This document shows, in pieces, positions 4,028 through 10,903 of a DNA stretch of 64,000 nt (position 1 is the stretch's first letter; every line of letters begins with the position of its first letter). The DNA is taken from contig JACKOP010000001.1 of assembly GCA_024234165.1 (NCBI GenBank), positions 213,707 to 277,706 of the forward strand, in the 5' to 3' direction. The notes beneath the pieces were generated by a model that had not been told where the DNA came from, ran no database searches, and was given only the letters and a program-made list of their open reading frames with translations. Origin of the DNA: Pseudomonadales bacterium. Its GTDB lineage: Bacteria > Pseudomonadota > Gammaproteobacteria > Pseudomonadales > UBA5518. A program made the translations under genes and the position numbers.

Positions 4028-7000
4028 TCAGCCGTCCGTCATCAATTTCCCACTGTTGATCAGGTGCTCGATGATCTGCTGGTCACTGCCGATCGCGAGC
4101 AGACCGCTCGCATTCTGCAACTCGATCGTCTGGAACGGGACTCCCGCATCGTGCTCGGCATCACCGGTAAAGGCTCCGGTCGGGCTGATCCGTACCAGTG
4201 CACCACCATCTGCCGTCGCCTGGAAATGCAGATAGCCGGTGAGATTATCGTGATTCTCCGTCTGCAGCAGATCGCGCAGGTCGAGTATATCGCCACCTTC
4301 GATCGCCGGGCGCGTATCGAAATGAGCGATCGTGTCGTGAGCCCCGGGGTCGGCCAGCGACCATTTGAACACATCAGGACCTATGTCTCCCGCAAACACC
4401 GTGTTGCCTTCGAGGTCATAAAGCATGTTGCCCGCGCCGATGATGTTCACGACGAAGTCGGCACTCATCGACACGTCACCGTCGTTGTCCGTTCCCTGAA
4501 CCGCGAACTCGAGCGGAGTCTCCACGATACTGATCGGTGTTTCGACCGCGAATCCGATGAACTTCCAGGACGTGTGGTTGGCCGCACTGAGTTCAACGGT
4601 GTCGAAGAGTGTGTGCTGCTCGAGCCCGTTGCGTGACAGATCGATCCAGTATTCGGAGCTTTCGTCTCCAGTGATGTTCACCACAGACCCGTCGGAGCCA
4701 ACGTAGCTGCCGCTGATGGTTCCCGAATCGATCAGTGTTCCGGCATGGTAGACCTTCCATACCAGCACATCATTGGTGCTCAGATTGCCGACATTCAGTG
4801 AGCACCCGGTCAATGCGTCAGCAAAGCTCATCCTGAGGACTTCCGGCGACCCGGCTCCAAGGTCATCGATCAGGTTGTTGCCGATTCCAAGCCCGTCCGA
4901 CGAGGGATTCAGGCTTCGAGATCCGGCGCTGAATACCACGCTGGTAAGCGGATCTCCGACGCCTGCACCCGTGTGTGCGTCGTAGCTTTGATAAAGCGAA
5001 GTCTCCACAGACACTGAAGGTTTGCCCGGCACAAGTGCCAGATTCGCCAAGTCAGGCGACGACGCAACCACGTCGGCATACGCCTTGAACAGCGTGAACG
5101 TGTAGCTCCCGGCGGAGTCGAGCGATATCGTGAACAACACATCGCCCGTGACGTCAGTTGCCACCAGGGTACCGTCATCCTGCAGTGCGTAGCTCACTCC
5201 TTCAGGTGCCAGACCGAGACTGCCGGCCAGACTGAATCCGGCGAGTCCATCGGCGGAAACGGCTGTGATGTGACCGGTGACCGAGAGGCCCGGCGCATTG
5301 ACGATGACGGCATTTTCCACATCGAGGATCGCCGGTTCCGAATCGACGATCGTGACGTCGATCTGCGTGGCAGCCGACGCGGTCCCGTCGCTGACCGATA
5401 TGGGAATCGACTCGATGAATCCATCATCGGTTGCACCTGCCTGACTGTCGTTGTCGACCACCGAGTGCAGCGTGTACTCGTAACCGTACACCCCGTTTTC
5501 GTAGGAAGTGATGGTCAATTGGCCGTAATGCGTCGGGACACTCTGACCGACGAGCTCCTCCATTCCCGAGCCGACATCGAAGGCGATCCCAGCGATCGTG
5601 ATCGTCTCGATATCTTCGAGTCCGTCGAGATCACTGACCGTGATCGTTCCGGTCACCACGACCGACGCCGCACCTTCCTCGCGTCCACCTGGTAACCCGT
5701 CCTCGAATACCTGTTGCACCACTGGCGCAACCATGACCAGCGGTGGGTGATTGATCGGCGTAGTCGCAGTGGTCGGCGTAGTGGCTGTCGTCGCCGTAGT
5801 CGCCGTTGTCGGCGTAGTCGCTGTCGTTGCCGTCGTCGCTGTTGTGGCGGTTGTTGCGGTTGTCGCCGTGGTCGCGGTTGTCGGTGTCGTGGCCGTCGTA
5901 GCGGTTGTTGCCGTCGTCGGCGTGGTCGCGGTCGTAGCCGTGGTTGGCGTAGTCGCCGTGGTTGCGGTCGTCGCAGTTGTCGGTGTCGTGGCCGTCGTCG
6001 CGGTTGTCGGTGTCGTGGCCGTGGTTGCGGTCGTCGCCGTGGTCGCGGTTGTCGCGGTCGTGGCCGTCGTCGCGGTTGTCGGTGTCGTGGCCGTTGTTGC
6101 AGTTGTTGCAGTTGTTGCAGTTGTTGCAGTTGTTGCGGTTGTTGCGGTTGTCGCCGTGGTCGCCGTGGTCGCCGTCGTGGCGGTGGTCGGCGTAGTCGCG
6201 GTCGTTGCCGTCGTAGCCGTTGTCGGCGTAGTCGCTGTCGTAGCCGTAGTGGCTGTCGTCGCGGTGGTGGCCGTGGTCGCGGTGGTGGCCGTTGTCGCCG
6301 TGGTCGGCGTAGTCGCCGTCGTGGCGGTGGTCGCCGTCGTGGCGGTGGTCGCCGTCGTGGCGGTGGTCGCGGTCGTCGCCGTCGTCGGTGTCGTTGCGGT
6401 AGTTGCCGTCGTCGGTGTCGTTGCGGTCGTTGCCGTCGTCGGTGTCGTGGCTGTTGTTGCGGTTGTTGCGGTTGTCGCCGTGGTCGCGGTTGTCGGTGTC
6501 GTGGCCGTCGTAGCGGTTGTTGCCGTCGTCGGCGTGGTCGCGGTCGTAGCCGTGGTTGGCGTAGTCGCCGTGGTTGCGGTCGTCGCAGTTGTCGGTGTCG
6601 TGGCCGTCGTCGCGGTTGTCGGTGTCGTGGCCGTGGTTGCGGTCGTCGCCGTGGTCGCGGTTGTCGCCGTCGTAGCCGTGGTCGCCGTGGTGGCCGTTGT
6701 TGCGGTTGTTGCGGTTGTCGCCGTAGTCGGCGTCGTCGCAGTTGTCGCTGTCGTGGCCGTAGTCGCTGTTGTGGCCGTAGTCGCTGTTGTGGCCGTGGTC
6801 GCCGTTGTCGGTGTCGTGGCCGTCGTCGCAGTTGTCGGTGTCGTGGCCGTGGTTGCGGTCGTCGCCGTGGTCGCCGTGGTCGCCGTGGTTGCGGTTGTCG
6901 GCGTAGTCGCCGTCGTTGCGGTTGTCGCCGTTGTCGCGGTCGTGGCCGTCGTCGCCGTGGTTGCGGTCGTCGCCGTGGTCGGCGTAGTCGCTGTCGTAGC

Positions 7001-10903: not shown

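Follow-up and report, generated by a model that had tools for sequence, protein, structure and literature searches.

Biofilm adhesins of the LapA/RTX type, such as P. fluorescens LapA, M. primoryensis MpIBP, V. cholerae FrhA and D. vulgaris DvhA, are exported by a type I secretion system (T1SS) and are built as an anchor, a long extender and a distal binding region. In two published accounts, their extenders are β-sandwich repeats (PMC7493085; 10.1101/2025.09.30.679566). Here, we analyse a gene from a 64,000 nt stretch of DNA of a Pseudomonadales bacterium (assembly GCA_024234165.1, contig JACKOP010000001.1, positions 213,707 to 277,706; hereafter the window), which is a predicted LapA-type surface adhesin whose middle is formed by a repeat, so that the whole extender is a tripeptide polymer.

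The window gene has in common with the described adhesins their general layout, a retention module, a uAAG/di-alanine site, neighbouring lapG and lapD genes, a dedicated exporter made of an ABC transporter, a membrane fusion protein and an outer-membrane factor, and a C-terminal secretion domain. These include all the hallmarks of a Lap adhesin, namely the retention module, the (T/P)AAG motif, lapG and lapD nearby, and a T1SS together with a C-terminal secretion domain. The extender differs, being a low-complexity array with a 3-residue unit, whereas theirs consist of tens to hundreds of Ca2+-stiffened immunoglobulin (Ig)-like domains. Further, the window protein lacks the RTX nonapeptide repeats (GGxGxDxUx), with neither a HemolysinCabind match nor a GGxGxD motif in the adhesin; it therefore falls outside a strict definition of RTX adhesins, having no nonapeptides and an extender that is not made of tandem Ig-like β-sandwiches, which are confined to its last 575 aa. 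No description of a low-complexity or Pro/Thr-rich extender in a LapA/RTX adhesin was found in the searched literature, whose coverage was incomplete.

Stalks of other kinds offer partial parallels. In periscope proteins (SasG, Rib, Sgo_0707 and CdrA), intragenic recombination makes copy number differ between close strains, which alters the projection of a functional domain (PMC8201768). Like the window adhesin, they are surface proteins with a tandem-array stalk, encoded by near-identical DNA copies that need long reads; however, their units are folded domains encoded by highly identical repeats of hundreds of bp (PMC8201768), whereas the window unit has 9 nt (3 aa), mixed synonymous codons and a coil prediction, and only its higher-order blocks are identical. 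A periscope-like difference in copy number may exist here (519 versus 579 units between identical flanks), with assembly error as another possible cause. In the wall-anchored stalks of Gram-positive bacteria, such as the Pro/Gly-rich stalk of Aap and the Ser-Asp stalk of SdrC, a low-complexity segment likewise lies between anchor and adhesive domains; these stalks are disordered or biased towards polyproline II, and their function is kept across very different sequence patterns (PMC10367597), which parallels the motif turnover among the window's relatives. Such adhesins are anchored by sortase and exported via Sec, and their stalks have from tens to a few hundred residues, whereas the stalk of the window adhesin, which is predicted to leave the cell through a T1SS and to remain plugged in the outer membrane, has 1,558-1,738. 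Ser/Thr-rich glycosylated proteins provide additional parallels, among them serine-rich repeat adhesins, fungal Als/Flo adhesins, mucins and fish antifreeze glycoprotein. Streptococcal Ser/Thr-rich intrinsically disordered regions (PMC12041528) share with the window stalk a very high Thr content, variable short repeats and a spacer role; glycosylation defines stalks of this group, whereas the window gene has no adjoining glycosyltransferase, and a GlcNAc-transferase lies beside the adhesin gene in one relative only (L004). Overall, the window protein is a predicted Lap adhesin with a low-complexity stalk, and belongs to a small clade in which motifs turn over rapidly.

The adhesin gene and its repeat array

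An earlier reading of this DNA, made from the sequence only, had described a 4.7-kb coding repeat, and this repeat indeed lies inside a single minus-strand open reading frame (ORF) encoding 2,291 aa (Table 1). The encoded protein runs from a retention module through (A/P-T-T)519 and a β-sandwich region to a T1SS C-terminal domain; its ATG at 10903 has a GGGGA 8 nt upstream. The retention module scores 114.3 bits against NF033682 (retention_LapA; cutoff 50) over residues 8-145, and a library search returned 1,405 proteins that match it. It contains a putative LapG site, P-A-A-G at residues 112-115, followed by GLGGG. LapG recognizes the motif uAAG (u = T/P), and LapA is cut at 108AA109 (PMC8286594, PMC10990149); the PAAG matches this published uAAG/di-alanine site, and its cleavage is predicted. 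At the other end, the T1SS C-terminal target domain (TIGR03661) reaches 48.5 bits (cutoff 17.6), and T1SS_rpt_143 gives a partial match of 34 bits, below its cutoff. Pfam yielded no matches to the N- and C-terminal parts of the adhesin, and NCBIfam was needed for both. AlphaFold2 (AF2) models the C-terminal 575 aa as all-β with a predicted local distance difference test score (pLDDT) of 72. A specific ligand-binding fold for this region was rejected, because Foldseek searches of the PDB returned only generic Ig, cadherin and FN3 β-sandwich chains with TM scores below 0.2. A full Lap cluster surrounds the gene, comprising the T1SS (LapB, LapC and LapE), LapG and LapD.

The array consists of 519 in-register units encoding 1,558 aa, and its phase is unbroken throughout in a codon-level reading. 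Tandem Repeats Finder recovers it as one block at 5755-10426, with periods of 18, 81, 153 and 333, matches of 75-77% and indels of 0-1% (1% at period 333 only). The units are ATT (417), PTT (96), VTT (5) and TTT (1), so that Thr makes up 67% of the residues; Pro is spaced 1 to 16 units apart without a fixed period. Lys and Arg are absent from the array, which puts it out of reach of tryptic proteomics. There are 49 distinct 9-mers among the units, and the codon counts agree with the mixture of synonymous codons reported earlier: Thr uses ACG (534), ACC (231), ACA (168) and ACT (106), and Ala uses GCG (211), GCC (106), GCA (70) and GCT (30). Pro, by contrast with Ala and its four third bases, is almost always CCG (95, against 2 CCA). 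In the 1,038 Thr codons at unit positions 2-3, the AC is invariant at all 2,076 sites, whereas the third bases of the unit's three codons are 41-52% non-consensus, and Ala↔Pro (G↔C at unit site 1) is the only frequent substitution. Thus, the amino-acid sequence of the array is held while its silent sites drift, which gives the array its scrambled look. Compared with a codon background of 22 supported window ORFs and the non-repeat parts of the adhesin gene, the array has more of the rare Thr codons ACA and ACT (26% versus 14%) and more Pro as CCG (98% versus 58%). This near-uniform CCG suggests that the Pro units share an origin from GCG (GCG -> CCG) and were spread by duplication. Moreover, five related blocks are recognizable by their Val unit (GTC), at units 38, 82, 107, 154 and 203. 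The impression that neighbouring units are unusually unlike needs correction, as 21 neighbouring pairs are identical compared with 14±3.7 expected; selection against identical neighbours was rejected on the same counts.

Superimposed on the units are long exact copies, most of which exceed the lengths first given for them. In particular, the copies at 7326, 7551, 7704 and 7920 match exactly over 98-133 nt rightward (up to 244 nt in total), those at 8586, 9027 and 9675 over 110-185 nt (family total up to 248 nt), and those at 5869 and 6481 over 187 nt (209 nt in total) at an offset of 612; the copy near 10071 lacks precisely 27 nt, as its lag changes from 1485 to 1458. The longest exact repeat (248 nt) compares with 34.9±3.6 nt (maximum 44) in 100 synonymous-codon shuffles that preserve the protein sequence, and 74% of the array lies within exact repeats of 45 nt or longer, versus 0% in the shuffles. 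For repeat pairs of at least 40 nt, 88/88 offsets are divisible by 9. The reported rule of multiples of 3 and 9 therefore holds, but it is forced by periodicity, since long exact matches can only be in register in an ACN-ACN-GCN lattice; it was rejected as evidence for frame selection. Compared unit by unit, the duplicated segments make up a patchwork at many different lags, from 9 to 165 units, without any single higher-order period. A generic repeat-family listing of the array returned just redundant families shifted by 9 nt, and custom scripts were used instead. Recombination between higher-order blocks, as proposed in the sequence-only reading, is shown by this patchwork for the history of the array, but not for the 61-unit difference between assemblies described below, which lacks long identical flanking blocks.

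Motif turnover among relatives

Homologues of the C-terminal region (44-94% identity) occur in metagenome-assembled genomes of Pseudomonadales and Gammaproteobacteria, and each has a different Thr/Pro-rich array directly upstream (loci and motifs in Table 1). Retention modules were confirmed upstream of the arrays in L004, L005, L009, L015 and L016. The flanking domains of the relatives are about 50% identical, and at the same place the Thr/Pro-rich motif, with a period of 3-6, differs. Array length and motif differ greatly among these relatives. Across these predicted adhesins, the composition and position of the array are conserved; its motif and period are not.

More distant relatives share the secretion domain alone and carry ordinary Thr/Val/Gly-rich folded repeats. 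In the isolate Thauera phenolivorans ZV1C (L043, 8759-11974), a retention module with PAAG is followed by only an ~80-aa PE/PQ-rich linker and cadherin-like domains; the long arrays may derive from a short precursor of this kind, and the isolate is tractable. In a library of 1.8 billion proteins, six of the 150 nearest retention-module proteins have short-period arrays, of 59-82 aa each, and a few N-terminal fragments among retention-module proteins end in PT repeats.

Several relatives have genes for candidate modification enzymes between the regulator and the adhesin gene (Table 1), and the 2OG-Fe(II) oxygenase accompanies Pro-rich arrays (EPTP, PTPA). These enzymes are a lead from gene neighbourhood and are candidates only.

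Two observations concern the records themselves. The Pro-rich arrays of L004, L015 and L016 show many jumps among all three reading frames, which are likely assembly indel errors. Locus L009 (CAMAXE010000001.1) is titled 'MAG: Klebsiella pneumoniae' and contains a GC-rich Lap locus 49% identical to the window adhesin; its taxonomic label looks wrong.

A length difference between same-strain assemblies

Two independent metagenome contigs from JGI, L062 (3300056625, 2.95 Mb) and L066 (3300056789), carry an identical version of the gene with 7,416 nt, 2,471 aa and 579 units, compared with 519 units in the window. Compared with the window, their flanks are free of mismatches over 14,360 nt on the upstream side and over all 5,755 nt between the array end and window position 1; the identity spans about 20 kb, and the array is the sole differing site between otherwise identical assemblies. 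In the unit alignment, 213 identical units are followed by three units with silent differences, a 61-unit (549-nt) segment that is missing from the window, 89 identical units, a one-unit difference in the (GCGACGACG) run, and 213 identical units. Both array differences are in frame.

The 61-unit segment is present in L062, L066, L074 and L064. Assembly L074 (JGI 3300056624) agrees with the 579-unit version over 420 units; L064 carries the private segment of the long version but passes over 165+9 units, 21 units are skipped at the end of L065, and L063 is frameshift-ridden. The best match of the segment to neighbouring blocks is 82-83%, so it is not a copy of a neighbour, and no clean recombination junction was found for it, as the three junction units match neither flank. 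Searching with the antisense ORF of the window array yielded no further record with 519 units. The (GCGACGACG)n run, with five copies versus four, is by its sequence a slippage-type one-unit indel. On the assemblies compared, the 579-unit version is better supported than the 519-unit one. Length variation, as the sequence-only reading suspected, is supported by the 519 versus 579 units with identical flanks, but assemblies alone do not separate polymorphism from mis-assembly.

Proposed mechanism and alternative explanations

Overall, the best explanation, which we consider probable, is a LapA-type adhesin of a Lap system with a low-complexity stalk, whose array changes in register. According to the Lap model (PMC10990149), from which the steps of export, retention and release are taken, the adhesin would be exported by the T1SS with its C-terminus leading, and its N-terminal retention module would keep it plugged in the outer-membrane channel; when cyclic di-GMP (c-di-GMP) is low, LapG would cut the PAAG site and the adhesin would be released. 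DvhA has been studied by a module swap into the P. fluorescens ΔlapA system (PMC10990149). Judged by position, composition and comparison, the (Ala/Pro)-Thr-Thr stretch of 1,558 residues would be non-globular and extended, a stalk that keeps the C-terminal β-sandwich binding region at a distance from the cell, with a contour length of about 480 nm if polyproline-II-like; its composition and length would matter, and its fold would not. The array would gain or lose single units through slippage in perfect runs, and blocks of 9-165 units through duplication or deletion, always in register. The reading as a non-globular spacer draws on the conserved composition and position, on the irregular Pro spacing and, weakly, on the AF2 model of the array, a coil with no strands and a pLDDT of about 33 from a single sequence.

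Several points weigh against this explanation. Expression, export and stalk behaviour are all inferred from sequence, and the AF2 coil carries little weight, as the single-sequence run scored the retention module low too. The array holds about 6% Pro, far below the arrays of its relatives, which makes a polyproline-II-like state less certain here. The difference between 519 and 579 units may be an assembly error; the window junction is not a clean recombinant, and its version lacks a second record. Finally, the pattern of silent sites does not by itself prove the strand. The antisense frame of the array, (VVA/VVG)n, is also open, and its variable sites are likewise third positions; third-position-only variation was therefore rejected as proof of the coding strand, and the predicted strand is assigned from the in-frame flanking domains and the relatives. 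It is hardly credible that the antisense ORF is the real gene and the sense reading an accident of a stop-free repeat, even though third-position variation would be silent there too and the JGI annotation of L062 and L066 has a 1,759-aa ORF on that strand. In the sense frame, a retention module and a T1SS C-terminal domain, each scoring above its curated cutoff, are connected with no intervening stop, and the array of every relative stays in frame with its retention and secretion domains; the antisense ORF has no domain matches or conserved ends, and the gene order is that of a Lap operon. A real possibility, though not what we expect, is that the length difference is purely an assembly artefact, with one population length (probably 579) and the window's 519 units collapsed or mis-polished. 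Flanks that are 100% identical over ~20 kb are consistent with this, as the assemblies may share a population or even reads; moreover, the long version recurs in L062, L066 and L074 (and its private segment in L064) while the short one was found nowhere else, the differences in the three junction units are all at third positions, as mis-polishing by reads of other units would give, and L064 and L065 show that assemblers skip blocks in this array. However, the window stays in frame through 4.7 kb, unlike the error-rich L063, L004, L015 and L016, its other difference affects a single unit of a perfect 9-nt run, a classic site of real slippage, and the wide variation in array length and motif among relatives implies that the array changes over evolutionary time.

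Two further alternatives concern what the array does. It is unlikely, though worth keeping in mind, that the array serves as a substrate for dense modification in the cytoplasm (glycosylation, hydroxylation, phosphorylation or sulfation) before export, which would make it a mucin- or extensin-like rod, with the bare peptide not being the working stalk. There is a precedent in Xanthomonas, where RaxST sulfates RaxX ahead of T1SS export. The Thr content of the array, the candidate enzymes in the regulator-adhesin gap of L004, L015, L016, L009 and L005, and the window's own homologue of the APH-like protein of L005 all point in this direction, but no such gene lies beside the window adhesin, where the regulator is just 175 nt away, and the APH-like gene of the window is 10.7 kb off among housekeeping genes; the enzymes vary from locus to locus and are linked to the arrays by neighbourhood alone, and a glycosyltransferase was not found among the scanned window ORFs. 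Still less probable is that the array forms a functional surface, as a face that binds ice, minerals or polysaccharides, as a regular β-solenoid or as an amyloid-like matrix element that self-associates. Fish antifreeze glycoprotein, (Ala-Ala-Thr)n, and the TxT faces of ice-binding proteins are Thr-rich parallels to the array, and β-branched Thr favours extended or β conformations. An RTX adhesin is borne by Marinomonas primoryensis, an ice-binding bacterium (PMC10990149). Against such a surface, Pro spacings of 1 to 16 units do not suit a coil of fixed length, relatives substitute EPTP, SPT, PTPA and other motifs with other periods so that no specific surface is conserved, AF2 finds no strands, and folded candidate binding domains are already present at the C-terminus. 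A stalk that serves as a spacer remains the preferred reading.

Contig breaks and public annotation

The LapB protein of the window is present on more than 20 public contigs, and contigs that end inside the array number 14 for the window's species and about 27 when relatives are included; clean spanning sequence is limited to the window, L062 and L066. The array is the unstable or unassemblable spot of the locus, because its recent block copies are still identical over up to 248 nt. The assembly hazard foreseen in the sequence-only reading is supported by the broken contigs, the skipped units of L064 and L065 and the frameshifts of L063.

Gene calls have suffered as well. In L062, JGI calls the 1,759-aa antisense (VVA/VVG)n ORF at 14774-20053 and a 568-aa C-terminal fragment at 20070-21776, and the calls for L066 consist of the same two ORFs. 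The NCBI annotation holds only a 563-aa C-terminal fragment (MCP5319387.1), which traces to a contig of 27 kb that is likewise broken in the array. Public annotations leave the N-terminal retention module uncalled, and the full-length adhesin is absent from a collection of 15 billion proteins. A single-protein scan of JGI metagenome contigs gave no matches; an alignment-based scan gave eight loci, all broken at or near the array. Such genes are nearly invisible in current resources, where most contigs break in the array, ORFs are called antisense and fragments are given names.

The Lap cluster and other window genes

The genes around the adhesin are listed in Table 1. LapG and LapD have NCBIfam equivalog scores below the cutoffs (NF045674, 224.7 bits versus 320; NF045673, 478 bits versus 1020), yet both have full domain sets. 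The product of 13098..15263 is named 'LapB' in one source. At the position just after the adhesin gene, 10/10 related loci examined have a called ORF with 107-113 aa; the window copy has no Pfam or NCBIfam match and no signal peptide. Elsewhere in the window, the 817-aa protein has a C-terminal APH/kinase-like domain and a nucleotidyltransferase-like motif, 'GSDFDILIELD'. The GC fraction is 0.53 at 28001-30000, compared with about 0.61-0.65 elsewhere. Rfam and tRNA scans of the whole window returned no matches.

Table 1. Coordinates of the features in the window and of the arrays and candidate enzymes at related loci.
Feature	Location	Strand	Basis or remark
Adhesin gene, 2,291 aa, 6,876 nt	4028..10903	-	One uninterrupted ORF; NCBIfam matches at both ends
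N-terminal 158 aa, LapA-type retention module	10430..10903	-	NF033682 (retention_LapA)
Repeat array, putative extender/stalk	5756..10429	-	519 nine-nt units, A/P/V/T-Thr-Thr
C-terminal 575 aa, β-sandwich chain and T1SS target domain (last ~100 aa)	4028..5755	-	
Junction units 213-215, site of missing 61-unit segment	8486..8512	-	Unit alignment and k-mer comparison
Perfect run (GCGACGACG)x5	7640..7684	-	x4 in L062, L066, L074
lapE-like TolC-family outer-membrane factor, cut by window edge	1..776	-	PF02321 OEP in identical locus L072
lapG, periplasmic cysteine protease (Peptidase_C93)	947..1654	+	Coordinates from identical locus L072
lapD, c-di-GMP receptor	1690..3639	+	LapD_MoxY_N, GGDEF and EAL domains
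107-aa ORF directly downstream of adhesin gene	3646..3969	-	Conserved; no Pfam or NCBIfam match
LuxR/GerE-type regulator, between lapC and adhesin gene	11078..11692	-	Also placed so in L004, L005, L009, L015
lapC, HlyD-family T1SS periplasmic adaptor	11689..13101	-	TIGR01843, 377.8 bits vs cutoff 208.65
lapB, LssB-type T1SS ABC permease/ATPase	13098..15263	-	TIGR03375, 938 bits vs cutoff 693
APH/kinase-like protein, 817 aa	21627-24080	-	Full-length homologue of L005 adhesin neighbour, 29% identity, E 7e-79
Array TTA/TTP	L001/L006, L007, L008, L054		
Array (TTP)47	L009		Complete 878-aa ORF
Array (SPT)n	L005, L011		
Array (TSPTTV)n	L010, L055		
Array PTPPTPPSP	L012		
Array (APTP)n	L003		
Array (EPTP)n, about 3.2 kb	L004		
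Array (APTTA)n	L058		
Array (PTPA/PTPE)n, (PTPTPA)n, about 3.3 kb	L015-L018		
2OG-Fe(II) oxygenase and PF11397 GlcNAc-transferase/methyltransferase	L004 4073-6623		Between GerE regulator and adhesin gene
2OG-Fe(II) oxygenase	L015 3161-4030; L016 1751-2563		40% identical to that of L004; regulator-adhesin gap
Sulfotransferase-TPR protein	L009 6682-8904		Regulator-adhesin gap
APH/kinase-like protein, 814 aa	L005 1278-3722		Regulator-adhesin gap

Implications

In the current view, T1SS adhesins are extended by Ca2+-rigidified Ig-like repeats; here, a complete predicted Lap system is combined with a tripeptide polymer, and a whole clade swaps the motif of its stalk yet keeps a Thr/Pro-rich composition. 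The array itself is either a fast length-switching locus or a warning about seemingly closed assemblies. These findings raise the questions of whether stalk stiffness or folding is required for T1SS export and surface display, and whether such Thr/Pro-rich stalks are modified. More tentatively, and with considerable doubt, these proteins may form a distinct class of Lap/T1SS adhesins with a fast-evolving Thr/Pro-rich extender (period 3-6, up to ~1,700 residues) that is enzyme-modified before export and varies in length clonally. The enzymes envisaged would act in the cytoplasm, and would be a prolyl-hydroxylase-like protein with a GlcNAc-transferase, a sulfotransferase-TPR protein or a kinase-like protein. 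If so, the window adhesin would be the first described member of such a class, and a bacterial, type-I-secreted counterpart of mucins and extensins.

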